64,000 bases of DNA. It comes from an uncultured Leptolinea sp. (lineage in GTDB: Bacteria > Chloroflexota > Anaerolineae > Anaerolineales > Anaerolineaceae). Below are positions 35,841-62,112 of this stretch, in pieces. The notes beneath the pieces are model-generated. The model searched no databases. It was not told the origin of the DNA and was given only the letters and a program-made list of their open reading frames with translations. A program made the position numbers and the translations under genes. Where the stretch lies: NCBI GenBank assembly GCA_964387025.1, contig CAYLUZ010000003.1, positions 261,828-325,827 of the forward strand, read 5' to 3'. The stretch's first letter is position 1; each line of letters begins with the position of its first letter.

Positions 35841-36846
35841 ATTCGTCACCTCCACTACCCGCAATTACAATCTCACCAGCTTCTTCCAGGGATCTTACCG
35901 CATCAACAATTCTCCGTTGAGCAGTATAAACGTTCTTTGCCAACTGAGGCCCTAATACTTCAATTTCCTCCCGCAGGTTCTCAGCAGCTCGTTCTGATAG
36001 ATTTCTAAAAACCAGTTCTCTTAATTTTTCCTGGGCAGCTTTTAACGAAAGGGCCAGATCTGCTTTGGGGACATCGCGCAAAACACGCTGCATGGTCTTA
36101 TCGTCCAGCTTCACCAGGTCATCAAAAGTGAACATATTGGAGTGGATTTCCTCAACAAGTTTGGGATCGGTAGTATCCAACGCCTCGAAGATCGTTTTTT
36201 GGACACCGCGGTCCACCTGGTTCATCATTTTCACCAGAAAAGATACGCCGCCGGTTGCACGAAAGTCGGCTTCATTTAATACCCCTGAAAGCTTATTCTT
36301 CAGGTTTTTTTCGACTACCTGAACTACCTGGGGAGATACCCTATCCATTGCGGCAAGGCGTAATACCACTTCAATTTGCAGGTCTTTTGGAAAGCTAGTT
36401 AATATATCCGCGGCAACCTTTGCTTCAAGGTAAGAGAGCACCAGGGCAATGGTCTGGGGCAATTCATCCTGCAACAGAGTCGCTACCTGGGCCGGGTTCG
36501 CATTGCGCAGCATCTCAAAAGAGGATAACTGTTGATGAGCAGAAATTCGTTCGAGGATCTCAGCACCACGACGCGGGCCAACTGCTCTGGATAATAGTTG
36601 GCGGCTATATTCTGCACCGCCTCCTTTCATTCCAGCTCCGCTTACAGTTAGTTCGTACGCCTCTTGCATCACCTGCCTGCGAGAATCTGCTGGAACATTA
36701 CCAGCTTTGCTTAATGACATTAATACCTGTTCAATTTCTCCTTCTCCAAGATATTGCAATACTTTTGAGGAGAGATCTACTCCGAGTGTCAGCAACAAGG
36801 CTGTAGCTTTTTCCAAGCCATTGGGGGATAACAAGGCATCAGTCAT
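35824..36846 (-). CDS. fliG: Flagellar motor switch protein FliG
   Basis: 'LEKATALLLTLGVDLSSKVLQYL', 'FTFDDLVKLDDKTMQRVLRDV', 'ERAAENLREEIE'. ATG at 36846 overlaps the fliF stop (TAATG). Confidence 0.9.
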   Translation of the reverse strand: MTDALLSPNGLEKATALLLTLGVDLSSKVLQYLGEGEIEQVLMSLSKAGNVPADSRRQVMQEAYELTVSGAGMKGGGAEYSRQLLSRAVGPRRGAEILERISAHQQLSSFEMLRNANPAQVATLLQDELPQTIALVLSYLEAKVAADILTSFPKDLQIEVVLRLAAMDRVSPQVVQVVEKNLKNKLSGVLNEADFRATGGVSFLVKMMNQVDRGVQKTIFEALDTTDPKLVEEIHSNMFTFDDLVKLDDKTMQRVLRDVPKADLALSLKAAQEKLRELVFRNLSERAAENLREEIEVLGPQLAKNVYTAQRRIVDAVRSLEEAGEIVIAGSGGDEYEVIA

Positions 36847-38474
36847 TAACGGTTCCCGTCTTCCGCCAACCAAAGTTGAATGATCTCAGCAACGCTGGCA
36901 GGGTTTTCTTCTGTCATTCGTGTTAGTACTTTTTGCAATTGCTCATCTTCAGGGTTGTGTTGTTCCATTTTGAAGGTTGATTCGATTTTTGGCTGAGAGC
37001 CTTGTGACTGTTGTAGCAATGGACTAGCTGAATTATTGGTTAACATCGGTGAGTTATGACCGGATAAAGCGGTGGCAGATAATGGTTTCATTACTGGAAC
37101 CCACGCATCTGAAGATGCTAGTCGAAGATTCTTTAGGAGTCTCTGTACATACCATAAGATCAGGAATAGTAATATGACCGCTCCGGCAATTTCACCGATC
37201 TTGTAATACAGTTCTGTATTTGAACTTTTTGATAAAACTTCTTCCTGTTGAGTGGCAAAGCTTGTATCAAAAGTTGTATTTTCAACCACAAGCTTATCGC
37301 CACGGGTTTCATCGATGCCTACAGCAGCGGAGACGGCACTTTTTAAGGTGGTTAATTGAGCCTGATCGGTCACATTATCGACGAGGACACTTAATGAAAT
37401 CCGTTTTACTGTTCCAGGCGAAAATATCTCGTGTGTTTGGGAGGTGGATAACTCATAATTGGTGACTTCATCAGACCTGGTGTAATTGGAAGAACTTGCT
37501 CCTGCGGCGGTAGTTGCCACCGGTGTGGGGAGGTTGCTGCTGGCTCCGGGAACTCCACCGGTTGCACCACCTGATGTAGTGTAATTTTCGGTAGTTTTTT
37601 GCGAACTACGAATGGCTGGTGTAGGTTCTACCTTTTGAGAGGTAGTCTCTTTTTGAGTCCAATCCAAAGATACATCGGCTTGTACAACTGCCCGGTTGGG
37701 ACCCAACACTTGAGCAAGCAGTAGTTCAACTTTATTTTGTATGTTTATTGCTGCTGCACCTTCTGCTGCACGACGGCTGTCTGTTTGGGCAACTGCCGAT
37801 GCCTCACCAGAAGATCCAGCACCAGAAGCCAGCATCCTGCCGGCGGAATCTACGATCACTACATTCTCCGGTTTTAATCCTTCAATACTACTGGCTGCCA
37901 GGTGCGCGATGGCAGAAACTTGGGCTGAATCTAATGTTTTTCCCGGTGCCAGTTTAACCATGATCGAAGCGGTGGTTACAGATTGGTCACCTGTAAGTAA
38001 TGTTTTTTCTGGTGTGACGATGTGCACCTGGACAGCTTGAACCGCACTCAAGCTACCGATAGTTCTTTCCAGTTCACCCTCCAGAGCACGTTGATAATTG
38101 ATCTTTTGGGTAAACTCAGTCATTCCGAGTGTGTTGCTGCCAAATAGTTCGAGGCCGACCGTACCATTTGAAGGTAGTCCGTCTCGCGCCATCTGGAGTC
38201 TGACCTCATAAACCTGATTTTCTGGAACCAGGATGGTACCAGTACCACTTAATTTATAGGGAATATTTGCTTCAGCCAATTTTTGAACAACCTGGCCCGC
38301 ATCTTCTTCAGACATCCCGGTAAATGCAACAGAATAGCTAGGGGCTGTAGCCCAGGTAACGATCAAGGGGATCACTATTACTGCGGCCAGGACCAGGGCG
38401 ATCAGGGTGATCTTCTGCGATGTGCTCTGGTGACTCCAGAATGAGCCTACTTGTTGTTGCAAAGGTGTGGTCAT
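36846..38474 (-). CDS. fliF: MS-ring protein FliF
   Basis: 542 aa with an N-terminal TM segment, 'YQRALEGELERTIGSL' and a second TM segment near 'IGEIAGAVILLFLILWYV'. Confidence 0.9.
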   Translation of the reverse strand: MTTPLQQQVGSFWSHQSTSQKITLIALVLAAVIVIPLIVTWATAPSYSVAFTGMSEEDAGQVVQKLAEANIPYKLSGTGTILVPENQVYEVRLQMARDGLPSNGTVGLELFGSNTLGMTEFTQKINYQRALEGELERTIGSLSAVQAVQVHIVTPEKTLLTGDQSVTTASIMVKLAPGKTLDSAQVSAIAHLAASSIEGLKPENVVIVDSAGRMLASGAGSSGEASAVAQTDSRRAAEGAAAINIQNKVELLLAQVLGPNRAVVQADVSLDWTQKETTSQKVEPTPAIRSSQKTTENYTTSGGATGGVPGASSNLPTPVATTAAGASSSNYTRSDEVTNYELSTSQTHEIFSPGTVKRISLSVLVDNVTDQAQLTTLKSAVSAAVGIDETRGDKLVVENTTFDTSFATQQEEVLSKSSNTELYYKIGEIAGAVILLFLILWYVQRLLKNLRLASSDAWVPVMKPLSATALSGHNSPMLTNNSASPLLQQSQGSQPKIESTFKMEQHNPEDEQLQKVLTRMTEENPASVAEIIQLWLAEDGNR

Positions 38475-40359: not shown

Positions 40360-42060
40360 CTATCCTGATGTATTGATAGAGCCATAAATACTATTTAACA
40401 TCTGTCTTTCATAGGCCATTGATTGAATTTGATTTTGTGCATCAGTAAATTGGTTGATCAAATTTTGTTGTCGCATTTCCAACCGAACTTTCATACTCTT
40501 GATCAGGTCATCCATTGACTTGGTCTGGGAATCAGTGGAAACAATGGATTGGTCCACATAACTCTTCGTTCCAACATAATTATTCAATTTCGATTGTAAG
40601 TTATTCATTAATCCGTCAAGCAAATACTTGACATCATTCGGGTTTGAGGCCAGCGCTTTTTCAAGCTTCCCTGCATCCGAGAGCATGGCAGTCATACTAT
40701 CACCGATGGTGACACCGATATCGCTTAATTTTTTGAATGTGCCATTGTTGGATATATTCCCGCCAGTCATTCTAAACAGGTCATACCGCAAGGTGGAGAT
40801 CGCCTGGTCAGAAGATAGGGTTCCCCGGGTGTATGTACCGTCTGCATTTTTGGTCACTCCGGCTTTCTGACCGATGAAACTGGTCAGTGCGTTGAACTTG
40901 GTCAGGAAATCATTGAGGGTATTCTTCTGAGGAGAGGAATCTCCACTGATCAGCATGGTGGCGCTTTTTCCCTGGGCATCACTCGCCAGGTTCAAAGTGA
41001 CCCCTGAGATCACATCAGTCAATCCGGTATTGGTGCTGCGTGTAACCAACAGATCGTTCACATAGAATGAAGAGTTTACCCCTGCCTGCATCTGGTTCTT
41101 GAAACCACCCAGAGCGGTCAATACTCCCAATGATTCTAATGGTTCGCCACTGGCAATTACGGAGTGAGCGGTCCCGGATTCATGAGCTGAAAGTATCAGT
41201 TGTTTATCTACGATCGAAGCGCGAACACCCTGACCAACGGCATAAGCAGCATTATTGATCTTCGCCGTGATATCATTCAGCGAATCTGTTGCAACGATCT
41301 CAAGTGATGCGCCTTGTGCTGAATAGCTGATACTGGCAGCCCCGCTTGCTTTTGTTCCCGCCACGAAATCAGCACTGATGTTGAAACTCATTCCGCGGCC
41401 GGTGTCGTAACTTCCAGCTGCAGGCAATGTTTGCCAGCCCGAGGTATACGTTGAACCACCGGATGATTTGATGGATACTGCAGTTCCATTTGAATCTACT
41501 ACTCTGAACTGTTTTACCTCACCGCTAAGTTGGGTCTCAACATAATAACTGCCTGAGCCTAGTTCCTGTTGACCCACGTCAAGATTACTTGTAACAAAAG
41601 TGCTAATTGTGGTGTTGGCTGACTCTGACGCAACAGATCGAGATGCCTGTCCACCAACTATGATTGTTCCTGCAGTTAATCCCAATGCCTGATCTGTGTT
41701 TAATTGTTGATCTGATCTTACCCGATGCTCTTTGGCCAGGGAGATATTAGTTATTTTATATTCTCCTGGAACTGCAGAAGTGCTTACTGCTGCACTGGCA
41801 ACTGTGAAACCTGTTTCAATACTGGTGAAGGAAACTTTCCTTCCCGGGGTGAAGTTGTAAAACGGATCAGTGCTTTTTAATGCTGATACCGAAGATTTCA
41901 ATGAGTCCAAACGGCTTTTGAGATCAATATAGACAGCTCTCTTGATAGCCAGGTCATCCTTTTGTTTGGTCAATCTGGTTAATGGCTGTTCTTCCAATAC
42001 CATCAAATTATTGATGAGATTGGTGAAGACCGGATCAAGATTGCTGATTGTGTTTGCCAT
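40360..42060 (-). CDS. fliD: Filament cap protein FliD (carries the module shared with FlgK)
   Basis: N-terminal 'LINNLMVLEEQPLTRLTKQKDDL', C-terminal 'RLEMRQQNLINQFTDAQNQIQSM'. ATG at 42060 has the same AGGTTTGAAATG context as the flagellin genes. Confidence 0.85.
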   Translation of the reverse strand: MANTISNLDPVFTNLINNLMVLEEQPLTRLTKQKDDLAIKRAVYIDLKSRLDSLKSSVSALKSTDPFYNFTPGRKVSFTSIETGFTVASAAVSTSAVPGEYKITNISLAKEHRVRSDQQLNTDQALGLTAGTIIVGGQASRSVASESANTTISTFVTSNLDVGQQELGSGSYYVETQLSGEVKQFRVVDSNGTAVSIKSSGGSTYTSGWQTLPAAGSYDTGRGMSFNISADFVAGTKASGAASISYSAQGASLEIVATDSLNDITAKINNAAYAVGQGVRASIVDKQLILSAHESGTAHSVIASGEPLESLGVLTALGGFKNQMQAGVNSSFYVNDLLVTRSTNTGLTDVISGVTLNLASDAQGKSATMLISGDSSPQKNTLNDFLTKFNALTSFIGQKAGVTKNADGTYTRGTLSSDQAISTLRYDLFRMTGGNISNNGTFKKLSDIGVTIGDSMTAMLSDAGKLEKALASNPNDVKYLLDGLMNNLQSKLNNYVGTKSYVDQSIVSTDSQTKSMDDLIKSMKVRLEMRQQNLINQFTDAQNQIQSMAYERQMLNSIYGSINTSG

Positions 42061-42095
42061 TTCAAACCTCATTACCGTTATAATTTTATGGCTGA

Positions 42096-47334: not shown

Positions 47335-47538
47335 TAATATACAACTTCATTATATATTGATTATTTCTCAACACAATCTACGATTTGGTAATTATGATGA
47401 AAAAATGTCCTCCAATATTGGCATAAGAAAATAAGATTGGTAAGCTGGATCATAGAAAGTTCTTCGTTTAGGGAACTTTAAGGCAAAACTCCGCGTTAAT
47501 ACGGTTGAGTTCTGATACTTAACCAATTGGAGGGCCAA

Positions 47539-49692
47539 ATGAAAAATTATTTGAAGCGGTTGATATTTCTGTTAACATTAATTGCCTTATTAATTCCCAA
47601 ACCAGTTTTTGCGGATGGATTTATTATCCCGGATCGTCCCATCATGGAGCAATTAGTGATCCGCTACCATCACGTGGATGTGAAGATCACGAATCAGATG
47701 GCGGTGACAACCGTGGATCAGACTTTTTTCAACCCCAATGATTGGACAGTTGAAGGTATTTATTCTTTTCCCATACCGAAGGATGCAGGCATCTCTTCCT
47801 TTAAGTTATGGATCGACGAGAAAGAAGTTGCCGGAAAGCTACTGGATGCTAATCAAGCCAGACAGCAATATGAAGATATTGTGCGAACAATGCGGGACCC
47901 GGCGTTACTTGAATATACAGACCGGGGTGCAGTGCATGTACGTATCTTCCCGATAGCCAGTGGAGAAGAAAGGCGCATCCAGCTGGAATACTCACAGCCG
48001 CTGTTATCCGAAAACGGATTGGTCCGATACACTTATCCATTAAATACTGAAAAATTCTCTATGCAGCCATTGGAGAGTGTCACCGTAAAGGTAAGCATTA
48101 CATCTTTAGAACCGATCCGGGCTGTCTATTCTCCAACTCATAAAATTTCGACCACCCAGGAGGACCCTTTCCATGCTGTGGCTGGTTACGAAGACAGTAA
48201 CGTAACACCGGATACCGATTTCAGCATCTATTATTCTACTGGTACCACTGAGGCTTTTCATCTATTTACTTATAGGAACGCCGATCCGGCTGATCCGGAT
48301 GGTTATTTTATGCTGTTATTATCCCCAAAACCGGAACTGCCCACACAGATCGTTTCAAAGGATGTGATCCTGGTACTCGACCATTCCGGAAGTATGGATG
48401 GGGAAAAATTTCAACAGGTACAGGATGCGGCTGATTTTATCCTGACAAAACTGAACCCGAGTGACCAGTTCAATGTAATTTCATTCAGCACAGCTGCTGA
48501 AGCCTACTCAAGCACCATGCAGCCGGCATCCCGTGCACCTCAGGCTATCACCTGGTTAAAACGATTTTCAGCAGCCGGATCTACCGACATCAACTCGGCA
48601 CTGAAGAAAGCAGCTGACGGGAGTGATACTGAACGACCGACGTACTTGATCTTCCTTACTGATGGCTTGCCAACCGAAGGCATAACAGATACACAACAGA
48701 TCATCCAGAATTTCAATCAAGTTTCACGTAAAAACCTGCGTTTCTTCAGCTTTGGTGTGGGATACGATGTTGATACAGTCCTGCTGGATACCCTTTCCCA
48801 GGAAAATCACGGCAGCAGTACTTACGTTATGCCCGGGCAATCATTAGATGAGATCATAAGCGCGTTCTATTCCCGAATTTCCGCGCCGGTGATGACAGAT
48901 CTGAGCCTCGATTTTGGTTCCATCCAGGTCTATGACATGAATCCTAATCCATTGCCGGATCTTTTTTATGGTTCACAGGTGATGATCACAGGACGTTATC
49001 GAAGCTCCGGGTCGACCAGTATAAGCCTGACAGGGAATGTGAATGGATCAGCACTAACTCTCATGTACCCTGAACAGGTATTTACCGGGACTGCGCTGGA
49101 ACAGGATCCTTCCCTAAATTACCTGCCCGGGTTGTGGGCAACCCGAAAGATTGGCACTCTGTTGAATCAGATCCGCATCAATGGACCGGATAAAGAAACG
49201 ATTGATCAGATCGTAAAATTATCCATCCGATATGGAATTGTGACTCCGTATACTTCCTATCTCGTGACCGAACCTGATTCCCTCGGTGTGGATGCTCAAG
49301 ATCGCATCGTGGAAGAACAATTCCAGGCGATGAGCACCATGCCGGCACCTTCAACCGGGGCTGGTGCGGTAAATAAAGCCGCTGATTCCGGCGCAATGAG
49401 TGCCGCTGAAGCACCCACCCAGGATTATGAGCAAAACAGCCCGGTGAAAGTAATTGGTTCTTCGACATACCTGTTGGTGGATGGTGTTTGGACAGATACA
49501 CGCTTTGATCCCAAGAGTATGACCCCCATTAAAGTTTCGTTCCTTTCAGCGGATTATTTCAAGCTGGCTGGATACAACTTTGATGTTTCGGCTGCTTTGG
49601 CATTGGGAGAGGAAGTCATCCTTATGATCAATGGAAGATCTTATCAGGTTGTGGAAGCCGGTTTATCTCTCCCTGCAATACTTTTACCCTAG
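47539..49692 (+). CDS. Secreted VIT + von Willebrand factor A domain protein
   Basis: Signal peptide 'LIFLLTLIALLIPKPVFA', VIT-like N-terminus, vWA MIDAS 'VILVLDHSGSMDG' and 'LIFLTDGLPT'. ATG at 47539 follows GGAGGG. Confidence 0.8.
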   Translation: MKNYLKRLIFLLTLIALLIPKPVFADGFIIPDRPIMEQLVIRYHHVDVKITNQMAVTTVDQTFFNPNDWTVEGIYSFPIPKDAGISSFKLWIDEKEVAGKLLDANQARQQYEDIVRTMRDPALLEYTDRGAVHVRIFPIASGEERRIQLEYSQPLLSENGLVRYTYPLNTEKFSMQPLESVTVKVSITSLEPIRAVYSPTHKISTTQEDPFHAVAGYEDSNVTPDTDFSIYYSTGTTEAFHLFTYRNADPADPDGYFMLLLSPKPELPTQIVSKDVILVLDHSGSMDGEKFQQVQDAADFILTKLNPSDQFNVISFSTAAEAYSSTMQPASRAPQAITWLKRFSAAGSTDINSALKKAADGSDTERPTYLIFLTDGLPTEGITDTQQIIQNFNQVSRKNLRFFSFGVGYDVDTVLLDTLSQENHGSSTYVMPGQSLDEIISAFYSRISAPVMTDLSLDFGSIQVYDMNPNPLPDLFYGSQVMITGRYRSSGSTSISLTGNVNGSALTLMYPEQVFTGTALEQDPSLNYLPGLWATRKIGTLLNQIRINGPDKETIDQIVKLSIRYGIVTPYTSYLVTEPDSLGVDAQDRIVEEQFQAMSTMPAPSTGAGAVNKAADSGAMSAAEAPTQDYEQNSPVKVIGSSTYLLVDGVWTDTRFDPKSMTPIKVSFLSADYFKLAGYNFDVSAALALGEEVILMINGRSYQVVEAGLSLPAILLP

Positions 49693-53167: not shown

Positions 53168-54019
53168 TTAAGCTTTTTCAGTTCTTTTTAGTGGGAGAAA
53201 TATTCCATTGCCGCTTTTACGCTGGCGTAAATAGAAACGGATGAGTAGAGATAAACCAATCACAAAAAGTGGTGCACCGGAATGAATGTTTCCCGCGATG
53301 ATAACAGCAATCCATGAAAGGATGACTTCTATTGGTCCAATCCATTCAGATAAAACCGATGCCGAATATATATTGGAGAATGGGGAAAATAAATGTAAAA
53401 CTGTGTATGAAAGCTCTTTATCCTTCAGAAGAAAACCCAGGGGTAAAGAGATAATGATCCCAATGATGTATGCGATCAATGTGTAATTTTGAGCGATAAG
53501 CCAATGCAGATTCGAATCATGGCGTGCATAAGTTGTTATTGAGGGCAGGATACTATACCATTCAGATAGCCACGTTGGCCTTATTAAAAAACATATTCCT
53601 AAAAATAATACGGTTAATAATATTATGCCTATCGATTGTCTCCGAGTCAGGTGGCGGATATACCAGGGTGCAATTACAAATCCAATCTGAGGTTTCATGA
53701 TCAATAGGGGAAGAGCCCATGGTCCTATTGAAACCAGAATGAGAGTTACTAACAGATCCAGTTGGCCAACGTATAAACCAAAACAAACCGGAAAACAGAG
53801 TAATGTCCAAATGCATTTCCATCCAAGAAGTCTCCATAATAGCCAGATGCAGACAAGTAGAAAAGCCAGGTACACAAACCATTCGGGTAACCATGCAATA
53901 AGGGCGAAAATTACAGCCACTGGAAATGGTGGAAGGAAATCCGGTACAGTATAAGGAGATATACCGGCTAGGACTGCCTGCCCCCCTAGGAAAAAATTGT
54001 GGAAATCGTAAAGAAACAC
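53168..54019 (-). CDS. Polytopic membrane protein (possibly GT87/DUF2029-like glycosyltransferase)
   Basis: 283 aa and very hydrophobic. The N-terminal 'LYDFHNFFLGGQAVLAGISPY' resembles the DUF2029 loop. GTG start after GGAGA. Function tentative. Confidence 0.4.
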   Translation of the reverse strand: MFLYDFHNFFLGGQAVLAGISPYTVPDFLPPFPVAVIFALIAWLPEWFVYLAFLLVCIWLLWRLLGWKCIWTLLCFPVCFGLYVGQLDLLVTLILVSIGPWALPLLIMKPQIGFVIAPWYIRHLTRRQSIGIILLTVLFLGICFLIRPTWLSEWYSILPSITTYARHDSNLHWLIAQNYTLIAYIIGIIISLPLGFLLKDKELSYTVLHLFSPFSNIYSASVLSEWIGPIEVILSWIAVIIAGNIHSGAPLFVIGLSLLIRFYLRQRKSGNGIFLPLKRTEKA

Positions 54020-54289
54020 TTATTCGTCTCCACTTTAATAATTGAACTTATCTGAGTAATGACTTACGTACAACTTATAATCCAAGCCCTAAACCTCCAT
54101 TTCAAGAATTATATATGTAATTAACTTTCAAGCCAAAGGGTTTCGACACGGAAAAATTTCTAATAACACATCTCATTCATTTTGAGTATATAACTTATTC
54201 TAGCATTCACCTGAAAATATAATCTATCCTTAAGATGAACTATTTAATAATCTTATTGTTTGATATATCTCTTCAATCTTTGATGATGA

Positions 54290-55207
54290 TTATTCAATTT
54301 TCGGTCTTTTCCGCCAGATCTTCCAGATTGACCAACCGAAGAGAATAAAACCAGTGGGTGTTGTTATGAAATATACCAGCCAATTAGTCGGCAAACCTAA
54401 ACCCGATGCAAAATATAAAGTATATAGGACAGAAGAGGTAATTGGTATTAGGAATAATGCAGTGAATCGCCGGGTAGGTACTGGTTCTGCCAGGATTTCC
54501 AACACATTTCCACTAATCTCATCTCTTTGGTTTTTCATTAGGGTGAAATATATGCTCATCATAAATGGTAAAAGTACCAATGCAATGGTCTGACCTGAAA
54601 GAATGATCAGGATATATAAAATCAGAAATATTCCTGCAACGATCCGGATCGCCCATGGAGAAGGAGAAAAAGGTTTCTCGAAAAGCCTCCCAGAGGATAT
54701 TAGACTAATTGCGAGCAACAAAGTTGCAATGAGAACATATCCTGTAAAAATAATCGGATTTACAAATGAATTCGGCTCTTCATACTTCCAGGTAATTCCC
54801 CATAACCAAAAAAAGATGCCGATAAGAACCGCATAAATAAAACTCTGTTTTGTACTTTTTCTTAATGCGACCTGTAATCCATACCAACCGGCTAGGACAG
54901 TGATCAAAGCATGCCAGGCTAACCCGGTGAAAGATATACTGAGGGGAAGATTTTCATAAGTCGTCTGGACAATGATCCCCTCACCGATCCAGCCAAAGAA
55001 AGCTCCAGCCAGGAAGAGTGCGTGGATATTCTTAACGTTGAACCTTGTAATCACAACCAGGAACAGGAATGCCATTAATGAATATGCCAGCCAAGTTTCC
55101 AGCCAGTTGAGTAAATTATCTTCCGGTCTTGGGCGTGCCCAAAAAACGAGTTCGGAAAAATAAAAGAAAACATAACCGGTGCTCAAACTGGCAAGAAGTG
55201 ACCGCAT
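54290..55207 (-). CDS. Polytopic membrane protein, unknown function
   Basis: 305-aa ORF with ~9 hydrophobic segments; no recognisable motif. Confidence 0.4.
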   Translation of the reverse strand: MRSLLASLSTGYVFFYFSELVFWARPRPEDNLLNWLETWLAYSLMAFLFLVVITRFNVKNIHALFLAGAFFGWIGEGIIVQTTYENLPLSISFTGLAWHALITVLAGWYGLQVALRKSTKQSFIYAVLIGIFFWLWGITWKYEEPNSFVNPIIFTGYVLIATLLLAISLISSGRLFEKPFSPSPWAIRIVAGIFLILYILIILSGQTIALVLLPFMMSIYFTLMKNQRDEISGNVLEILAEPVPTRRFTALFLIPITSSVLYTLYFASGLGLPTNWLVYFITTPTGFILFGWSIWKIWRKRPKIE

Positions 55208-55326
55208 GTGTACCTCATCTAGTTAATCAAATTTACCCTTGAGTAAATCGATTGGTTAACGGTTTACCCGCTTTTCTATGCCAGCAACAGTTTGGAATCA
55301 TCCCTTTTATATCCAGGTCCTTACAA

Positions 55327-55878
55327 TTATTTAACCCGTTTGGCCATAATGATATCCGGTTTACCATGTCCATTCGCATCGGGTATTACCCCAACAATTG
55401 AAAATCCCTGTTTGAGGTAGAACTCATAAGGATGATTTTTAAGATTGCGGATATTTACGAGGTTACCCGGAATGTCATCATAGAGATCCTTATCAGCGAG
55501 GGTGGTCATGCCATCCTCGTCGTCCGTTCCCAGGTATATGGTTTCCCCTCCATGGATTTTGACCTGCTGTTCAAGATCAGCAACCAGAGCTTTACCTAAA
55601 CCAACTCTTTGCAGATCAGGCCGCACCACAAGAGGATGAAGTTCCCAGGACAGACCATCAAACTCGCTGATCGCTCCTATCCAACCGAGAATAGTACCTG
55701 TCTCATCCACAGCAGCACGGGCAATTTTTCCTGGCTGAATAGCTTCTGCCACTTCCTTCAAGGCTGATTGCATATCCGGCCAGGCATTAGGCCAGTGGAC
55801 TCTGAATGCATCCACCAACATGTTGGCAGCCTGCTCCATAACCACAGGATTGGCGGATCTTAAATCGATAATCTGCAT
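55327..55878 (-). CDS. GNAT family N-acetyltransferase
   Basis: Acetyl-CoA loop 'VVRPDLQRVGLGKALV' (Q/RxxGxG/A) and C-terminal 'HPYEFYLKQGFSIVGVIPDANGHGKPDIIMAK'. Confidence 0.8.
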   Translation of the reverse strand: MQIIDLRSANPVVMEQAANMLVDAFRVHWPNAWPDMQSALKEVAEAIQPGKIARAAVDETGTILGWIGAISEFDGLSWELHPLVVRPDLQRVGLGKALVADLEQQVKIHGGETIYLGTDDEDGMTTLADKDLYDDIPGNLVNIRNLKNHPYEFYLKQGFSIVGVIPDANGHGKPDIIMAKRVK

Positions 55879-55893
55879 TTGTAGTTATAAAAT

Positions 55894-56310
55894 CTAAGAT
55901 TCATATGATCTCATAGTAGTAAAAGATGCTTTTATCAGCTCTTTGAGGACATTTTGGTCGACATCTTCCAATCTCTTGATATATAAACACCCTTTACCCA
56001 TGGAGTGTTTTCCAAGTTTGGCCATCAATTCTTCATTCTGCTTAAATCCGGACATGATATATAAGGATAGATTTTGTTTACGGGGAGAGAATCCGATCCG
56101 CATCCAATCCGCCTCCTGCCCGCTGGCGTATTTATAATGGTAAGTGCCAAATCCGATAATACTGGTTCCCCACATCTTAGGCTCTTCTCCAGTGACCTCT
56201 TTCATCATGTCGAGGATGGCGAATGAATCCTGGCGTTTCTTATCTTCCGGAATCGTTTTCAAGAAGCTTTCAACGCTGGCATCATTGATTTTGGTTTTCA
56301 GTTCATACAT
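55894..56310 (-). CDS. DUF1801 (YdhG-like) domain protein
   Basis: 'VESFLKTIPEDKKRQDSFAILDMMKEVTGEEPKMWGTSIIGFG...Y' is the typical DUF1801 pattern. ATG at 56310 follows GGGAGG. Confidence 0.6.
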   Translation of the reverse strand: MYELKTKINDASVESFLKTIPEDKKRQDSFAILDMMKEVTGEEPKMWGTSIIGFGTYHYKYASGQEADWMRIGFSPRKQNLSLYIMSGFKQNEELMAKLGKHSMGKGCLYIKRLEDVDQNVLKELIKASFTTMRSYES

Positions 56311-56406
56311 TTCTTCCTCCCTTTCTTGCACCATAAAATACTTAACAACAATTATAAATATTTTAACGGGATGACAAGAGGTATTCCACGATTAGTATCA
56401 CCTTTA

Positions 56407-57132
56407 TCAACTTCCAGGCAGGATGGGAGGAAAATGGATCTTGATTGGATGCACCAAACCTATGATTATCGCAACAGGAATGGAGAATAATACCGGGAAG
56501 AAAATTGCCATTACATAGTGGTACCAAAGCGGTTGCTTTGCCCCACGTTCAGATGGAAGGGTGTATGCGGGTAGGTAGACCATCAACCCGTAAACAAATA
56601 TCCACAAGCCAAATTCAGCGAAAGCCTGGATTCCGCCAAATGATGCTTCAGCAGTGATTCCTGTTAATCCAAACAATAATAGAACAGCATTCGGGCTGAA
56701 ATTATATCTCCGGAGCAACACTGCCCAGCCTATGAACATGGGAATGAAAACTACCACGCTATGCAGGAAAACAACATCCAAATAGTTACTTGAAGCGGTT
56801 ATATAAGCTTCACCGAGAGAAACTCCAAAAATAGGAGCCAGGTTGGTCATTGTGGTTGTGATGGCTTCTTCAATGAGTGCCAGAAGGGTGGCGAATAACA
56901 CAAACTTAAGCTTCCAATCCAATTTTATTCCCAGGATTAAATTACGAATCCGGCTACGGAGTATTATTGTGGCTATTCCACCGATCAATACCCATACGAC
57001 CACCAGACCTGAACCCATCAATAATACAGCCCGAGTATTTGGAGGAGCGCCAACCAAAGCAATCAGAAGAATTACTGCAGTTGAAAGCGCGAGCCAACCA
57101 GCGATTAGTTTGATAACCAAGCTAGATTTCAT
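56407..57132 (-). CDS. Polytopic membrane protein, unknown function
   Basis: 241-aa hydrophobic ORF, adjacent to the CPBP protease gene. Confidence 0.4.
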   Translation of the reverse strand: MKSSLVIKLIAGWLALSTAVILLIALVGAPPNTRAVLLMGSGLVVVWVLIGGIATIILRSRIRNLILGIKLDWKLKFVLFATLLALIEEAITTTMTNLAPIFGVSLGEAYITASSNYLDVVFLHSVVVFIPMFIGWAVLLRRYNFSPNAVLLLFGLTGITAEASFGGIQAFAEFGLWIFVYGLMVYLPAYTLPSERGAKQPLWYHYVMAIFFPVLFSIPVAIIIGLVHPIKIHFPPILPGS

Positions 57133-57185
57133 TTGGAATTTGCACGGATCTTCTTCAATGGGTCCCTGTTATGAGAGAAGAATTG

Positions 57186-58094
57186 TCATCCGCCTCCAGC
57201 AGTGATCGAACCGATTGCCAGAAAGGTAAAGATCATAACATCCTGTAAAAAGTGGATGAACCATGCCCAGAAGAACCCGCGTGTTTCCAACATGGATTTT
57301 CCAAGTATCCAGCCTAAGAAAGTGGCCATTACCACGCCAATGATGCCGTACGGAATTCCGTAAAAATGAAAAATTCCAAAAAAGGCTGCCATTAACAACA
57401 GAGCCTGTTTTTTTCCAACCGGTCCTTCCAGCACCGATAAGAAGCTGGCTTTATAAGTCATCTCTTCATTAAATGCATTCAAGGCAGCAGCCAATAAAAC
57501 GGCTGGCAGGAAAGGCAGTGCTTTAACAACAATATTTAGTGGAGGATGCCCGGCAATGACCAGGAACGCCAGTGTGCCCAAACTAATGCAAATTGAAAGG
57601 ATCAGACCAAATTTTTTCCAATTCTCTCCTTTGCCTACTCCAAGCCAGCGAACTGGCTCGACCGGTGCTGAAATATCCCCTTTGACCAGGAAGAAACCTG
57701 CCCGATTCTTTTTGATCAGATATAAGATGGCGATTATTACCCCCGTTACGATCAGCTTCAGAGATAACTCTGCCACCATGTATATATTAAAGGAAGGGTT
57801 ATCCAGCAAGGACTTATAGAACGGAAGTGTGCCGAGTTGGGTGAATACCACCCATTGGACAAAAACCAGTACCAGGAACAATATTAGGAAGGACCGCAGG
57901 TTGTGCATCGGTTCCCAGATGAAAGATAGAAGTAATCCAATGCTGATCAAACTGGTAGAAATAATTGTCTGGGCGGTAAATGAAACCGTCAGGTGGAAGA
58001 TCTCCTGAGGGATGATTTTTGGCAGCAACGAGGCGCTAAGGACAATGATCCAGGCTGCGATAGTGGTGATTTTAGGGGACTCCAGTGTCTTCAT
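57186..58094 (-). CDS. CPBP (CAAX) family intramembrane glutamic endopeptidase
   Basis: Motif 1 'NEEMTYK' (EExxxR/K), motif 2 'FGIFHF' (FxxxH), motif 3 'HFLQD' (HxxxN/D). ATG at 58094 follows GGAGGA. Confidence 0.7.
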   Translation of the reverse strand: MKTLESPKITTIAAWIIVLSASLLPKIIPQEIFHLTVSFTAQTIISTSLISIGLLLSFIWEPMHNLRSFLILFLVLVFVQWVVFTQLGTLPFYKSLLDNPSFNIYMVAELSLKLIVTGVIIAILYLIKKNRAGFFLVKGDISAPVEPVRWLGVGKGENWKKFGLILSICISLGTLAFLVIAGHPPLNIVVKALPFLPAVLLAAALNAFNEEMTYKASFLSVLEGPVGKKQALLLMAAFFGIFHFYGIPYGIIGVVMATFLGWILGKSMLETRGFFWAWFIHFLQDVMIFTFLAIGSITAGGG

Positions 58095-58125
58095 ATAGCG
58101 TTCCTCCATTTCCGTATTAATAATT

Positions 58126-58192: not shown

Positions 58193-60115
58193 TTAAAACA
58201 AACCAATTACTCTGCCTGTCTCCAGATCCAGATCGATATCATAAAAAGCCGGGCGGGTGGGCAATCCGGGCATGGTGCTCATCTTGCCAAGAAGCGGGTA
58301 CAGGAAACCCGCCCCAACGGAAGCACGGACTTCACGTACACCGATCCTGAATCCGGTGGGAACGCCTTTGATGGTTGGGTCAGCGGTGAGGGATAAGTGT
58401 GTTTTAGCCATACAGATCGGTAATTTATCAAAACCCAACCTTGTATAATCGGCGATCTGTTTCTCTGATTCAGGTGAGTAATCCACTCCGTCCGCCCCGT
58501 ATACTTCCCTGGCGATGGTTTCGATCTTTTCCTTGATGCCAAGATCAAGTGGATAAAGGAATTTAAATTTAGACGGCTTTTCTGCTGCCATGACAACTGC
58601 CTCAGCCAGGTTTTTAGCACCAGAACCACCGGTTGCCCAATGCGAACTGACCACTGAATCTTCCGCTCCGGCAGCTATTGCAGCTTTCCGGATCATCTCA
58701 AGCTCTGCTTCAGTGTCCGGTGCAAAGCGGTTGATGGCAACCACAACCGGGATACCGAATTTGCGGGCGGTCTTTATGTGGTGCAGCAGATTAGGCAACC
58801 CTTTTTCCAGCAGGGGGAGGTTTTCATCCGTGTATGCAGAGTCAAGTGGTTTTCCAGCAACAACTTTTGGTCCACCGCCATGCATCTTAAGGGCACGCAC
58901 TGTGGCTACTAATACGACCACATTGGGAACCAGACCGGATGTGCGGCATTTGATATCGAAGAATTTTTCCATACCGATATCAGCCCCGAAGCCGGATTCT
59001 GTCACCACGTAATCTGCCAGTTTCAACGCAATCTGGTCAGCCAGGATCGAGCTGTTGCCATGGGCGATGTTTGCAAACGGACCAGCATGGACAAAGACGG
59101 GCGTCCCTTCCAGCGTCTGCATTAAATTCGGTTTAATAGCATCTCGCATCAATACGGTAAGCGCACCAGCGATTCCAATATCTTCGGCAGTTACTGGATC
59201 TCCGCTGCGGCTCAATGCCACTACCATCTTACCCAGGCGCTCGCGCATATCCTTAAGACTGGTGGTAAGAGCCAGGACAGCCATGATCTCGCTGGCGACA
59301 GTAATATCAAAACCGGTATCCCGTTCGTGACCAGTTTCTTCAGGTCCGTGTCCTACAGTGATCCCACGTAAAAAGCGATCACTGGTATCCATTACCCGTT
59401 TCCAGGTGACTGTAGAGGGATCGATATCCAACCTGCATAATTTCTTCCGTTCCTCTGGTGACAGGTCGTTCGGGTTGGTTTTTGTGATACCAAGCTTCTT
59501 TACTCGCCCCTGCAATCCCTTGCCAAATATTCGATTTCCTTTTTTATCAGGTGGACAAAGTCGGTTGAACATCTGCTCGTCAGTTGCTTCTGTTTCATGC
59601 AGCATTCTTACATCAATTGCTGCAGCGAGTAAATTATTGGCTGCGGTGATGGCGTGAATATCTCCGGTAAGATGCAAGTTGAAGTCTTCCATGGGTATCA
59701 CCTGGCTGTAACCACCGCCGGCTGCCCCGCCTTTTATTCCAAACGTTGGTCCCTGGCTGGGCTGCCGGATGCAGGTGATCACCCGTTTACCAAGTTCAGC
59801 CCCCAGAGCCTGGCTGAGACCAACTGTGGTAGTGGTTTTCCCTTCCCCAAGCGGTGTGGGGGTAATTGCGGTCACATCAATATATTTACCATTAGGTGCA
59901 TTTTTTAATCGGGTAAGAATATCCAACTTCACTTTAGCTTTAAAGGGCCCATATAGTTCCAACTCATCAGGTAGAACACCCATCTCTGCAGCAACCTGGA
60001 CAATCGGTTTTAATGTTGCGGCCTGGGCAATATCTATGTCTGACGGAACTGGTGTTAATAACTTTAACGTTGTCGGAATGAACTTTTTAGTTTCGGTTTG
60101 ATTTGCTTGAGGCAT
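58193..60115 (-). CDS. fhs: Formate--tetrahydrofolate ligase
   Basis: '[16 protein letters not shown]', '[18 protein letters not shown]', '[11 protein letters not shown]' and '[10 protein letters not shown]' are signature FTHFS blocks. ATG at 60115 chosen; an alternative start lies at 60133. Confidence 0.95.
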
Positions 60116-60206
60116 TATTACCAATCCTTTCAAATTTACAATGAAAATGAATCCTATCTAATTGTGCTATAGCTTTATCACTTTCGCAAGAGGTAATACG
60201 AGCTAG

Positions 60207-60328: not shown

Positions 60329-61018
60329 TTGAGGAGCATTACCAGACCCGCACTACTGGAAGGAAATCTCTTGTTCAATAATTACTGGTTGAAAAAACTG
60401 ATACTCATTGTAAACATTATATTCATCGGGGGGCTATTATTTCTAAACAATTCAAGCCTGATTCCCATCACTGGACAGACACTTCCGGCCTTTCAAGCAG
60501 ATACAGTATCTTCAGACATAACTCCTTTTAGGAAATTTGTTGATTCGGTCGTTGATGGAGATTTGAAATTAAAAGGTTTATATATTCCATCTGTCCTGGC
60601 TTTGGAAGTAGTTCAACAACCTAAGTCGCAACCATCTTTCGTTTCCTCGGAACCGGATAAGGCAACTCAGTTCGGATTAGCTTCCACATATGGAACGATC
60701 GGGTTATTGGCACATAATTATGCAGGTGGGGCAGATTTTGATGAAGTAGAAGTAGGCGAGATGATCGATTTGGTTTATGGAGATGGTCGAATCAAAGAAT
60801 ACCGTGTAAGTTCCATTCTAAGATTCCAGGCGATCGATCCAGTAAATACCAAAACAAGCTTCTTAGATCTTGCCACTCAATTAAAGGAGACAGCGGAAGA
60901 CTTGTTCATGAAAGTCTACAGTGGAAAACCGCATCTCACATTGCAAACCTGTATCTCAAATGGTTCTATCAGTTCATGGGGAAGGCTATTTATCATTGCT
61001 GAGCCAATTAGCGATTAA
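60329..61018 (+). CDS. Membrane-anchored sortase-fold protein (paralogue 1)
   Basis: His 'GLLAHNYAGG', Cys 'LTLQTC' (TLxTC) and Arg 11 residues later, 'WGRLFIIA', in the same order and spacing as the sortase triad. N-terminal TM 'LILIVNIIFIGGLLFL'. No ATG near the start: TTG at 60329, or TTG at 60371 which is preceded by GGAAGGA. Confidence 0.55.
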   Translation: MRSITRPALLEGNLLFNNYWLKKLILIVNIIFIGGLLFLNNSSLIPITGQTLPAFQADTVSSDITPFRKFVDSVVDGDLKLKGLYIPSVLALEVVQQPKSQPSFVSSEPDKATQFGLASTYGTIGLLAHNYAGGADFDEVEVGEMIDLVYGDGRIKEYRVSSILRFQAIDPVNTKTSFLDLATQLKETAEDLFMKVYSGKPHLTLQTCISNGSISSWGRLFIIAEPISD

Positions 61019-61134
61019 ATAAAATTAGAAATAAGTTTGTAAGTAGTTTGTAAGTTATTAGATATCTTGTCGTATGATATATAACCTATAATTTACTTTA
61101 GTAATCAATATACGTTCCTTAACAATTTGTTCAC

Positions 61135-61222
61135 GAGAATAGCAAAACCGGTGAAAACCGGTGACGCAAAGCTATGGGTCTTCGATCAGAGAAATCTGAT
61201 AATGATTGCCAGGTTACCGAAA
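61135..61222 (+). promoter_or_regulatory. c-di-GMP-I (GEMM-I) riboswitch aptamer, copy 1
   Basis: GCAAAACC-[ACCGGU GAAA ACCGGU]-GACGCAAAGC-UAUGGGUC...[AUCAGA GAAA UCUGAU]...UUGCCAGGUUACCGAAAG. Shares GCAAAcC, the GNRA-capped P2, GACGCAAAGC and GGUUACCGA with the Vc2-type consensus. Confidence 0.85.
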
Positions 61223-61243
61223 GTACGATTTTTACGTATGACT

Positions 61244-61274
61244 AAGACCCGGCATAAGACCCGGGTCTTTTTTG
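61244..61274 (+). terminator. Intrinsic terminator forming the expression platform of riboswitch 1
   Basis: AAGACCCGG-cataagac-CCGGGTCTT followed by TTTTTTG. The 5' arm AAGACCC is also complementary to the aptamer segment GGGTCTT (61176-61182). Confidence 0.7.
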
Positions 61275-61295
61275 TACACTAACAAAGCATGAACG

Positions 61296-61378
61296 ATAAG
61301 GGCAAAACCGGTGAAAACCGGTGACGCAAAGCTATGGGTCTAACACCGATGAGGTTATGACCGCCAGGCCGCCGAAAT
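61296..61378 (+). promoter_or_regulatory. c-di-GMP-I (GEMM-I) riboswitch aptamer, copy 2
   Basis: The first 40 nt (61302-61341) are identical to copy 1 (61142-61181). The 3' half differs (...GACCGCCAGGCCGCCGAAAU). GACCCAT at 61416-61422 can pair with the aptamer segment AUGGGUC. Confidence 0.75.
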
Positions 61379-61455
61379 AAATATAATACCTTCCCAATTT
61401 TCACTCCAGGCGGTTGACCCATATCTTAGTCAAGCCCTTGTCAGAAAGAGACAAG

Positions 61456-62112
61456 ATGGTTTTTGACTTCAAACGTATGGTAAGAATATTCACACTCACA
61501 GTAGTTTTACTGGCGAGTTTGTTTCCATTTTCACAAGCACAAGCCAACATTCCGGTAACAGCAGATCCCATTCCTGCAGCATCTACAATCGGGACTTCAA
61601 CATCAAAATCATCGGTCATTGCTTTATCCGATTTTGCTGCAGCAATCAATGATGGCAAATCAGTTCTCCGTGGAGTATATGTTCCTGATGTAATGGCTTT
61701 CCGCGTTATCCAACAGCCAAAGAACCAGAGTGGATTTGTTTCAACCATTAGAGGATTGGTCACTCAATTTGGATTGGCCTCAGATTATGGGACGATCGGT
61801 TTACTCGCTCACAACTTCGCTGCTGGATCTGAGTTCTCCAAGGTCCTGGTTGGTAACACAGTCAGCGTAATTTATGGGGATGGGACAATAAAGGAATTTA
61901 TCGTTACAAAAATCGCTCGTTACCAGGCATTACAACCAAATAGCACCAGTTCAAATTTCCTGGACCTGGAAACGAATGAAAAATTATCCGCTGGAACATT
62001 GTTCAAGGCAGTTTATGGTGGAAAAGCTCACCTGACATTACAAACCTGCATCGCACAGGGTAAAGAAAGCTCCTGGGGCAGGTTGTTCATCATTGCAGAA
62101 CCGGTAAAATAA
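61456..62112 (+). CDS. Secreted sortase-fold protein (paralogue 2), downstream of the tandem riboswitches
   Basis: Signal-like 'MVRIFTLTVVLLASLFPFSQAQA'; 'GLLAHNFAAG', 'LTLQTC', 'WGRLFIIAEP'. Start set at ATG 61456; the track ORF start at 61414 lies inside the riboswitch platform. Confidence 0.55.
   Translation: MVFDFKRMVRIFTLTVVLLASLFPFSQAQANIPVTADPIPAASTIGTSTSKSSVIALSDFAAAINDGKSVLRGVYVPDVMAFRVIQQPKNQSGFVSTIRGLVTQFGLASDYGTIGLLAHNFAAGSEFSKVLVGNTVSVIYGDGTIKEFIVTKIARYQALQPNSTSSNFLDLETNEKLSAGTLFKAVYGGKAHLTLQTCIAQGKESSWGRLFIIAEPVK

Follow-up and report, generated by a model that had tools for sequence, protein, structure and literature searches.

The window analysed here is a 64,000-nucleotide (nt) stretch of contig CAYLUZ010000003.1 from an uncultured Leptolinea sp. 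of the Anaerolineae, and our subject is the leader that precedes a gene of the sortase_YLP family near its 3' end. This leader contains two complete GEMM-I aptamers, the RNA type known for sensing cyclic di-GMP (c-di-GMP), and their occurrence lies far beyond chance, because 132 such aptamers were found in the window and 79 related loci, each directly 5' of the homologous gene and on its coding strand. Most probably, this is a monocistronic sortase_YLP leader with two independent GEMM-I OFF switches, the first transcriptional and the second translational. The enzyme would be made when the signal is low, and either riboswitch, once occupied by its ligand, would turn expression off. The features on which this scenario rests are the following:

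61131-61221, + strand: aptamer 1, with the GEMM-I fold
61175-61182, + strand: predicted anti-terminator UGGGUCUU, formed by the P2 5' strand of aptamer 1 and pairing with 61244-61251
61244-61273, + strand: intrinsic terminator with stem AAGACCCGG / CCGGGUCUU and loop CAUAAGAC, followed by a U tract (terminator scan, minimum-energy fold)
61291-61377, + strand: aptamer 2, with the GEMM-I fold and a canonical pocket
61295-61303, + strand: predicted switching strand GAUAAGGGC in the 5' junction of aptamer 2 (minimum-energy folds, covariation)
61409-61423, + strand: auxiliary anti-aptamer segment (minimum-energy folds)
61432-61442, + strand: platform motif AAGCCCUUGUC, a partner of the aptamer 2 5' strand or of the start-codon region (cognate-pairing tests)
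61443-61462, + strand: ribosome-binding stretch AGAAAGAG (61443-61450), sequestor 3' arm and AUG (61456-61458) (local fold)
61456-62112, + strand: regulated gene, 218 amino acids, sortase_YLP (NF053836, AlphaFold2 and Foldseek)

Tandem GEMM-I riboswitches had been proposed from a reading of the bare sequence (the original prediction), with an Rfam search named as the check, and they passed it. Rfam covariance models matched both elements over the full model length: RF01051 (c-di-GMP-I) covered 61131-61221 with 76.9 bits (gathering score 35, E 2e-13), while RF03167 was the top clan member for 61292-61377, reaching 67.1 bits where the gathering score is 59. Two more clan matches above threshold were masked by clan competition. 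Our own covariance model, R1, built from 24 aptamers of the gene-family loci, gave 88.8 bits to aptamer 1 and 99.5 bits to aptamer 2 (61291-61377). Both aptamers show the two-hairpin architecture of GEMM-I, a GNRA-capped P1a plus P2, and it is backed by compensatory changes: 94.2% of the cells of the aptamer secondary structure are paired, 13 of the 18 pairs carry compensatory changes, and none of 500 shuffles reached the observed score. The P1a hairpin of aptamer 1, ACCGGU-GAAA-ACCGGU, occupies 61146-61161, and the GAAA loop is present in both window aptamers. The outermost P2 pair is A-C rather than A-U in 57 of 126 distinct aptamers, aptamer 2 among them (61329 with 61370); in this variant, the 3' strand reads GCCGCC in place of GUUGCC.

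The comparison set consisted of 79 related loci from a genome collection, almost all of them metagenome-assembled genomes of Anaerolineae (Leptolinea, Pelolinea, Anaerolinea and 'uncultured Chloroflexia'); public data contain over 3,500 members of the sortase_YLP family itself. The nearest locus, L002, encodes a protein 97% identical to that of the window. Rfam models placed aptamers upstream of the gene in 18 of the 19 loci L001-L019, the exception being L017, where just 9 nt of DNA lie upstream of the match. By R1, two aptamers precede the gene in 54 loci, one in 21 and three in 1, and the start-to-start spacing of the tandem aptamers is 147-218 nt. With all paralogs mapped, aptamers were located in the 500 nt upstream of 77 sortase_YLP genes and were absent from this interval in 23 others, and 21 of these 23 are the upstream paralog in the same layout as in the window. 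An unregulated paralog, the riboswitches and a regulated paralog thus follow one another in 21 loci besides the window (among them L001-L005, L014, L016, L021, L025, L028, L029, L036, L040, L042, L045, L055, L059, L071, L072 and L074), and in L070 aptamers stand before both paralogs. Overall, the association between these aptamers and sortase_YLP is strongly conserved across the sampled genomes and, apparently, has not been reported.

The two window aptamers lie 160 nt apart and share the 40-mer GCAAAACCGGTGAAAACCGGTGACGCAAAGCTATGGGTCT (61142-61181 = 61302-61341); the coordinates and strings originally given for this repeat were correct on re-reading. Identity ends with A 61141 versus G 61301 on the 5' side and T 61182 versus A 61342 on the 3' side, and the 3' halves read GGTTACCGA in aptamer 1 and GGCCGCCGA in aptamer 2. 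The identical stretch starts one base past position 20 of the ligand pocket (Vc2 numbering, see below), which is the sole pocket difference between the two. Aptamers of one locus are generally closer to each other (identity 0.747) than to those of other loci (0.664; permutation p = 1e-4), and the nearest aptamer is the own partner in 18 of the 54 tandem loci. Such a pattern suggests gene conversion or repeated duplication. One could go further and suppose that one aptamer of the window is a young duplicate devoid of function, whose 40-nt identity is not selected, and both the perfect identity and the within-locus likeness would agree with this. However, two aptamers are kept in 54 loci with proteins down to about 41-45% identity, each scores 65-99 bits and has a distinct expression platform of its own, and the similarity within loci is better explained by gene conversion between functional copies. 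We therefore regard a functionless copy as very improbable.

Aptamer 1 is followed by a terminator stem of 9 base pairs (bp) at 61244-61269, with 6 G-C pairs, an 8-nt loop and a T tract reaching 61273. This clean terminator, already noticed in the original prediction, was the strongest terminator-like site of the region in our scan and also formed in the entire leader's minimum-energy fold (z = -4.55 versus shuffles). Its 5' arm is complementary to the aptamer: AAGACCC (61244-61250) matches GGGTCTT (61176-61182), and the best duplex joins UGGGUCUU (61175-61182) with AAGACCCG (61244-61251) over 8 bp at -11.6 kcal/mol. As an anti-terminator, this originally proposed pairing stands as the best duplex in the window and five other loci, but it does not represent the family. 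A strong terminator begins 15-40 nt past the upstream aptamer, without overlapping it, in 47 of the 54 tandem loci, and the best partner of its 5' arm is the aptamer 3' strand CCAGGYU in 35 of these 47 and the P2 5' strand in only 6, the window included. Arm and aptamer evidently change together, as in CCAGGCU/AGCCUGG, CCAGACC/GGUCUGG and CCAAGCC/GGCUUGG, and duplexes of cognate partners are more stable on average than non-cognate ones (-13.85 versus -11.73 kcal/mol, permutation p = 2e-4).

Since the strand that serves as the anti-terminator belongs to the aptamer, ligand binding should favour termination, and the OFF direction originally predicted for riboswitch 1 gains support from this co-evolution. 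In the absence of ligand, riboswitch 1 (61131-61221 plus 61244-61273) would let UGGGUCUU pair with the terminator 5' arm, leading to read-through, a role that the 3' strand CCAGGYU would play in most relatives. With ligand bound, the aptamer would retain the strand and the terminator would form. The gap between the U tract and aptamer 2 is only 17 nt, so both aptamers must lie on one transcript.

Downstream of aptamer 2, the window holds no classical terminator, in agreement with the original prediction. The minimum-energy fold shows, in place of aptamer 2, an alternative nested structure whose outermost helix pairs GAUAAGGGC (61295-61303) with GCCCUUGUC (61434-61442) at -16.7 kcal/mol. GAUAAGGGC spans A18, G19, G20 and the G21-C22 pair. 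Holding these pocket residues, it makes the GAUAAGGGC:GCCCUUGUC helix and the ligand pocket mutually exclusive. The partner region is recognizable in most loci as a motif YYYUURUC located 15-45 nt ahead of the start codon. Among 40 distinct loci, the helix covaries at three pairs, a score that none of 500 shuffles reached; the counts are UA 20, CG 11 and UG 8 at one pair, GC 20 and AU 18 at position 19, and GC 31, GU 5 and AU 3 at position 20. Matched variants include AAGGGC-GCCCUU, AAAGGC-GCCUUU, GAU/GAC-AUC/GUC and AAGAGC-GCUCUU, the last found with three A20 proximal aptamers.

The same motif has a second partner, the start-codon region. When motifs were paired with cognate and non-cognate strands, the cognate aptamer strand was favoured (-15.31 versus -12.49 kcal/mol, p = 1e-4), and so was the cognate start region (-11.0 versus -7.18 kcal/mol, p = 1e-4), while the control pairing of the aptamer strand with the start region gave no signal in the same test. 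Motif and start region match in different loci as GAGCC...AUGGCUC, GUGCC...AUGGCAC and GGCUCU...AGAGCC. In the window, the sequestor reads AAGCCCUUGUC...GACAAG-AU-GGUUU (-9.3 kcal/mol), its 3' arm consisting of GACAAG (61450-61455) and GGUUU (61458-61462), with the G of AUG paired; folded alone, the platform gives this start-codon hairpin. We thus propose that the family-wide switch of aptamer 2, missed by the original prediction, is the putative competition of GAUAAGGGC and the start-codon region for GCCCUUGUC. Without ligand, riboswitch 2 (61291-61377 plus the platform to 61462) would pair GAUAAGGGC with GCCCUUGUC and leave the start codon free. With ligand, GAUAAGGGC would be kept in the pocket, GCCCUUGUC would fold onto GACAAG-AUGG, and the start codon would be sequestered. 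In both riboswitches, therefore, the expression platform is mutually exclusive with the aptamer through covarying or co-evolving helices.

Loci of the Leptolinea type have a start-codon hairpin of 13-14 bp followed by U5-7 encoded by the first codons (MGLF...). This long hairpin was seen in L014, L016, L020, L021, L025, L028 and L029, about 45-80 nt past the proximal aptamer. In these organisms, the second riboswitch may combine termination with a block of initiation.

The original prediction had instead assigned the control of aptamer 2 to GACCCAU (61416-61422 in the window) pairing with AUGGGUC of the aptamer. The two strings are indeed complementary, and they pair in the minimum-energy fold as part of auxiliary helices that join GGCGG (61409-61413) with CCGCC (61369-61373) and GACCCAUA (61416-61423) with UAUGGGUC (61333-61340). 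The GACCCAUA pairing is kept in L003 and L004 and covaries in L014 (ACCCGUAA with UUACGGGU). Across the family, however, the GACCCAU:AUGGGUC effect is small (-7.99 versus -7.34 kcal/mol, p = 0.001), and the 3' strand of aptamer 2 showed no family-wide signal with the platform (-9.46 versus -9.65 kcal/mol, p = 0.78). We consequently demoted GACCCAU:AUGGGUC as the main switch. What stands of the claim is a pairing real in the window's clade and the placing of the action next to the start codon; as a means of control, the pairing is weak family-wide and auxiliary. The predicted pairing of the aptamer 2 3' strand with the platform is a feature of the window's clade only.

Several observations weigh against the scenario of two OFF switches. 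With 6 + 5 bp at -9.3 kcal/mol, the sequestor of the window is short, and its purine-rich ribosome-binding stretch AGAAAGAG is weak. Compared in 75 loci, the computed accessibility of the ribosome site averages 0.53 in the free and 0.53 in the aptamer-locked state, going down in 12 loci and up in 11; since this estimate does not discriminate, the OFF direction of riboswitch 2 rests on the mutually exclusive, covarying helices. In riboswitch 1, the window's terminator arm has a C-A mismatch to the family-typical 3'-strand partner, and P2 is stable by itself, so that the anti-terminator may not invade it readily. Finally, aptamer 1 lacks G20, and its label as a c-di-GMP sensor is an assumption.

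It might also be asked whether one or both riboswitches act in the ON direction, the ligand promoting sortase expression. Many characterised c-di-GMP-I and GEMM-Ib riboswitches are of this kind, for example in Geobacter (PMC6456294), and the identical accessibility of the ribosome site in both states leaves room for it. However, the terminator starts 23 nt past aptamer 1 without overlapping it, and its 5' arm complements an aptamer strand, so the folded aptamer frees the terminator. As for riboswitch 2, pocket residues are part of the very strand by which the motif is captured, so the ligand releases the motif to pair with AUG. Hence, we find an ON direction very improbable, and two OFF switches remain our preferred interpretation.

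The question of ligands was approached through the pocket, whose positions were read from alignments in Vc2 numbering. In characterised GEMM-I RNAs, of the two guanines of c-di-GMP, G20 reads one and C92 pairs with the second, while A47 gives a backbone contact to the ligand (PMC6140456, PMC5888326). All three are present in aptamer 2 (G20 = 61301, A47 = 61328, C92 = 61372). Aptamer 1 has A47 (61168) and C92 (61217) but reads AAUAGCAAAA, with an A at 61141, the equivalent of Vc2 G20. A47 and C92 are invariant across the family aptamers.

The canonical pocket of aptamer 2 bears directly on its Rfam label. RF03167, the c-di-GMP-I-GGC variant, would imply an altered pocket and a ligand other than c-di-GMP, and it was the best Rfam model not only for 61292-61377 (67.1 bits versus 59) but also for 14 among the 28 aptamers that L001-L019 yielded. 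However, the consensus sequences of RF03167 and RF01051 differ at a single conserved nucleotide, GACGCGAAG versus GACGCAAAG. We take 'GGC' to stand for positions 20/47/92, alongside this comparison of the Rfam consensus sequences. Aptamer 2 reads GACGCAAAG, and an A stands at this position in it and in all 131 aptamers that cover it, so the G replacing A47 in GACGCGAAG is absent. The label arises from clan competition, since RF03167 also models a short P1, and does not reflect the pocket. We thus consider a GGC variant hardly credible and suggest that aptamer 2 should be placed under RF01051. Automatic annotation based on Rfam would mislabel such aptamers as the GGC variant, although none of the 14 has G47.

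The A20 of aptamer 1 deserves a separate comment. The G20A exchange enables binding of 3'3'-cGAMP (c-AMP-GMP), often giving bispecific aptamers, and suffices alone in Vc2 (PMC6140456); the A-variant aptamer of D. acetoxidans likewise gains cGAMP affinity (PMC9481103). A20, which aptamer 1 carries according to its alignment, is a hallmark of GEMM-Ib RNAs that respond to cGAMP or are bispecific, and the ligand of aptamer 1 may be c-di-GMP, 3'3'-cGAMP or both. The original prediction that both aptamers sense c-di-GMP is therefore supported for aptamer 2 by the canonical pocket, while it stays ambiguous for aptamer 1. Of the 54 upstream aptamers, 19 carry A20, as do 3 of the 54 downstream ones and 1 of the 21 single ones; in tandem loci, an A20 aptamer is always partnered by a G20 aptamer, and such mixed pairs make up 22 of 54 (~40%). 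Position 20 is swapped between close relatives, such as the window and L003 (85% aptamer identity) or L032 and L046 (94%); L003 and L004 share the architecture of the window but have G20 upstream.

Keeping this in mind, it is tempting to suppose a two-input NOR gate, in which the A20 aptamer 1 senses 3'3'-cGAMP and the G20 aptamer 2 senses c-di-GMP, so that the sortase paralog would be made only when both messengers are low. In GEMM-Ib RNAs, it is the A at position 20 that pairs with cGAMP's adenine (PMC6140456), and the Vc2 and D. acetoxidans cases just cited show what it can confer. Its concentration upstream, always with a G20 partner, would suit such a gate, as would the fact that the 40-nt identity in the window stops exactly one base from position 20. 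However, A20 is necessary but insufficient for cGAMP selectivity, and many A20 aptamers are bispecific (PMC6140456). Moreover, the close relatives with G20 upstream (L003/L004 at 85%; L046 versus L032 at 94%) look more like drift within one signalling context. Nor did a cGAMP synthase come to light in this organism, although no search was aimed at one. We had also considered it as two-ligand evidence that the two aptamers of a locus are never both A20, but this was dropped, as it is not significant (~1 such locus expected by chance). On balance, a two-ligand gate seems possible but rather unlikely. We hold it to be more likely that both aptamers sense c-di-GMP, aptamer 1 responding as the bispecific G20A aptamers do, with A20 perhaps shifting the threshold; this is the least certain point of our scenario.

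The regulated gene most likely starts at ATG 61456, as the homologues begin at an aligned Met. It matches NCBIfam NF053836 (sortase_YLP, 'putative sortase') with 225.5 bits against a cutoff of 125, while no Pfam family matched it, and in its paralog the Sortase family (PF04203) reached 19.4 bits, under the cutoff of 26.6. His119 (LLAHN), Cys198 (LTLQTC, resembling the TLxTC motif) and Arg209 (SWGRLF) are invariant in an alignment of 24 diverse members and, by analogy with sortases, would form the catalytic triad. A sequence-profile search of the PDB returned no sortase and only chance matches to ribosomal protein S20, which made a comparison of folds necessary. With the AlphaFold2 model (mean predicted local distance difference test, pLDDT, 79.2), the top 50 Foldseek hits in the PDB comprised nothing but sortases of classes A and C (E 4e-7 to 1e-5, probability 1.00, template modelling scores normalised to the target 0.44-0.66). 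The model begins with a hydrophobic signal or anchor helix followed by a disordered linker, which is the usual anchor arrangement of sortases. Family model, triad, fold and predicted N-terminal helix together uphold the original description of a secreted sortase-fold protein, and a sortase-like activity may be presumed. The paralog lies upstream:

60329-61018, + strand: sortase_YLP paralog without an aptamer in front (NF053836, 206.5 bits)

Neither Rfam models nor R1 matched any aptamer upstream of this paralog, which we regard as context and not as a component of the switch. Across the loci, no substrate gene was conserved next to the regulated gene; the neighbours were purB, an M1 peptidase and unrelated open reading frames. 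Since the downstream neighbours vary between loci, the regulated unit is a single gene.

As a device, the leader is of a type already known. Among tandem riboswitches, those of the c-di-GMP-I class come first in number, 347 doublets and 12 triplets having been reported (PMC9481103), and they are statistically enriched (PMC12452182); Bc3-5 of Bacillus thuringiensis, with separate platforms, has been characterised experimentally (PMC9481103, PMC12452182, PMC4759541). Like Bc3-5, the leader described here has two GEMM-I aptamers in series, each with its own platform, with a terminator between the aptamers and a start-codon hairpin after the second on a single transcript, as in the pseudo-cooperative class of PMC9481103, and a steeper, more digital response may be expected. 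It differs from the published tandems in its Anaerolineae host (the groups singled out by the enrichment analysis are Bacillota (yebA), Thermodesulfobacteriota and Deinococcota), its sortase-family target, its platforms at two levels (termination, then start-codon sequestration) and its pockets, which differ (A20 versus G20) in ~40% of tandem loci, including the window. Aptamer 1 also resembles the GEMM-Ib c-AMP-GMP riboswitches Gs1761 and Gm0970 of Geobacter and the bispecific A20 aptamers Vc2 G20A and Cbe 1-2 (PMC6140456, PMC6456294), sharing the fold and the A at the equivalent of Vc2 G20 or Gs1761 A14. Geobacter likewise has tandem GEMM-I-type riboswitches, but the Geobacter examples are ON switches of cytochromes and pili, in contrast to the presumed OFF logic and the G20 partner aptamer here. 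As for RF03167, it gave the best Rfam model for aptamer 2, but the G47 that defines it is replaced by A47.

A link between c-di-GMP riboswitches and the sortase-dependent display of surface proteins has precedents. In Clostridioides difficile, such riboswitches control sortase substrates and their protease (PMC6200980), and in B. thuringiensis, Bc2 controls the LPXTG collagen adhesin Cap/CbpA (PMC4933901, PMC7423583). In both, however, it is the substrates or the releasing protease that are regulated, whereas here it is the sortase-like enzyme itself, which would be repressed rather than induced and adjoins an unregulated paralog. The literature thus agrees with the original remark that a sortase-fold gene was not a familiar GEMM-I target. 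PMC9481103 and PMC12452182 contain no mention of sortase, Anaerolineae or a c-di-GMP/c-AMP-GMP pair, and full-text searches combining Anaerolineae or Chloroflexi with riboswitch and sortase topics returned nothing relevant. Overall, the gene association and the mixed design of transcriptional and translational control appear to be unreported.

Two further elements precede aptamer 1:

61035-61055, + strand: direct repeat of GTTTGTAAGT (61035-61044 and 61046-61055), candidate regulator site (sequence, L001-L004 alignment)
61087-61092, + strand: candidate -10 box TATAAT, about 40 nt ahead of aptamer 1 (conservation)

The repeat is perfect, has an 11-nt period and ends about 32 nt upstream of TATAAT. 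Both repeat and TATAAT are conserved in L001-L004, whereas the intervening DNA is not, and CCTATAA is kept in all five close relatives. A simple sigma-70 promoter scan ahead of aptamer 1 found none, and no conserved -35 was seen. Such an arrangement resembles a promoter that depends on an activator and serves the riboswitch leader, which seems to start at the conserved TATAAT; the direct repeat would then be part of the riboswitch system.

Elsewhere, the window contains a large flagellar gene cluster (7701-42072), with the following members:

16064-18145: FlhA
18156-19466: SRP54-type FlhF-like GTPase
23412-25151: FlgK
30623-32218: FliK
36846-38474: FliF
40360-42072: FliD

Flagellar genes are notable for a genome of the Anaerolineae type and fit a lifestyle switch controlled by c-di-GMP. 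A motile state at low c-di-GMP would fit this cluster as well, and its link to the sortase is speculation. A VIT-VWA protein (47527-49692) has as its best NCBIfam match TIGR03788, 'marine proteobacterial sortase target protein', with 251.9 bits, under the cutoff of 551.65; its C-terminus, ...AGLSLPAILLP, has no membrane anchor, and a tie to sortase-type processing is possible but unproven. On the minus strand, multi-pass membrane proteins with no family match (53168-54019, 54290-55207 and 56407-57132) are adjoined by a CPBP/Rce1-like intramembrane protease (57186-58109). This run (53168-58109) sits between a helicase gene and a formate-tetrahydrofolate ligase-like open reading frame (58193-60133).

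For RNA biology, the locus offers a well-covarying switch whose anti-sequestor would be the ligand-contacting 5' junction strand itself, a mixture of transcriptional and translational control in one leader, and a natural series of A20/G20 aptamer pairs in which the evolution of ligand specificity can be studied. The locus further illustrates that Rfam clan competition can tag canonical aptamers as the GGC variant. Should the two-ligand gate prove true, riboswitch signalling by cGAMP would extend to Chloroflexota, with a ligand pair that the published list of natural riboswitch logic gates lacks (PMC9481103, Table 2), and two messengers would decide the production of a second, dedicated sortase paralog.

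The preferred scenario of two c-di-GMP-responsive OFF switches has its own consequences for the organisms concerned. Anaerolineae, which are filamentous Chloroflexota, abound in sediments and digesters and for the most part have not been cultured. Two cultured relatives, Leptolinea tardivitalis YMTK-2 (L021) and Leptolinea sp. HRD-7 (L014), share the architecture described here, so experiments are feasible. The leader would tie second-messenger signalling in Anaerolineae directly to one enzyme family, sortase_YLP, and it gives a testable hint that the regulated paralog may be wanted only at low c-di-GMP, while the neighbouring paralog would stay outside such control.

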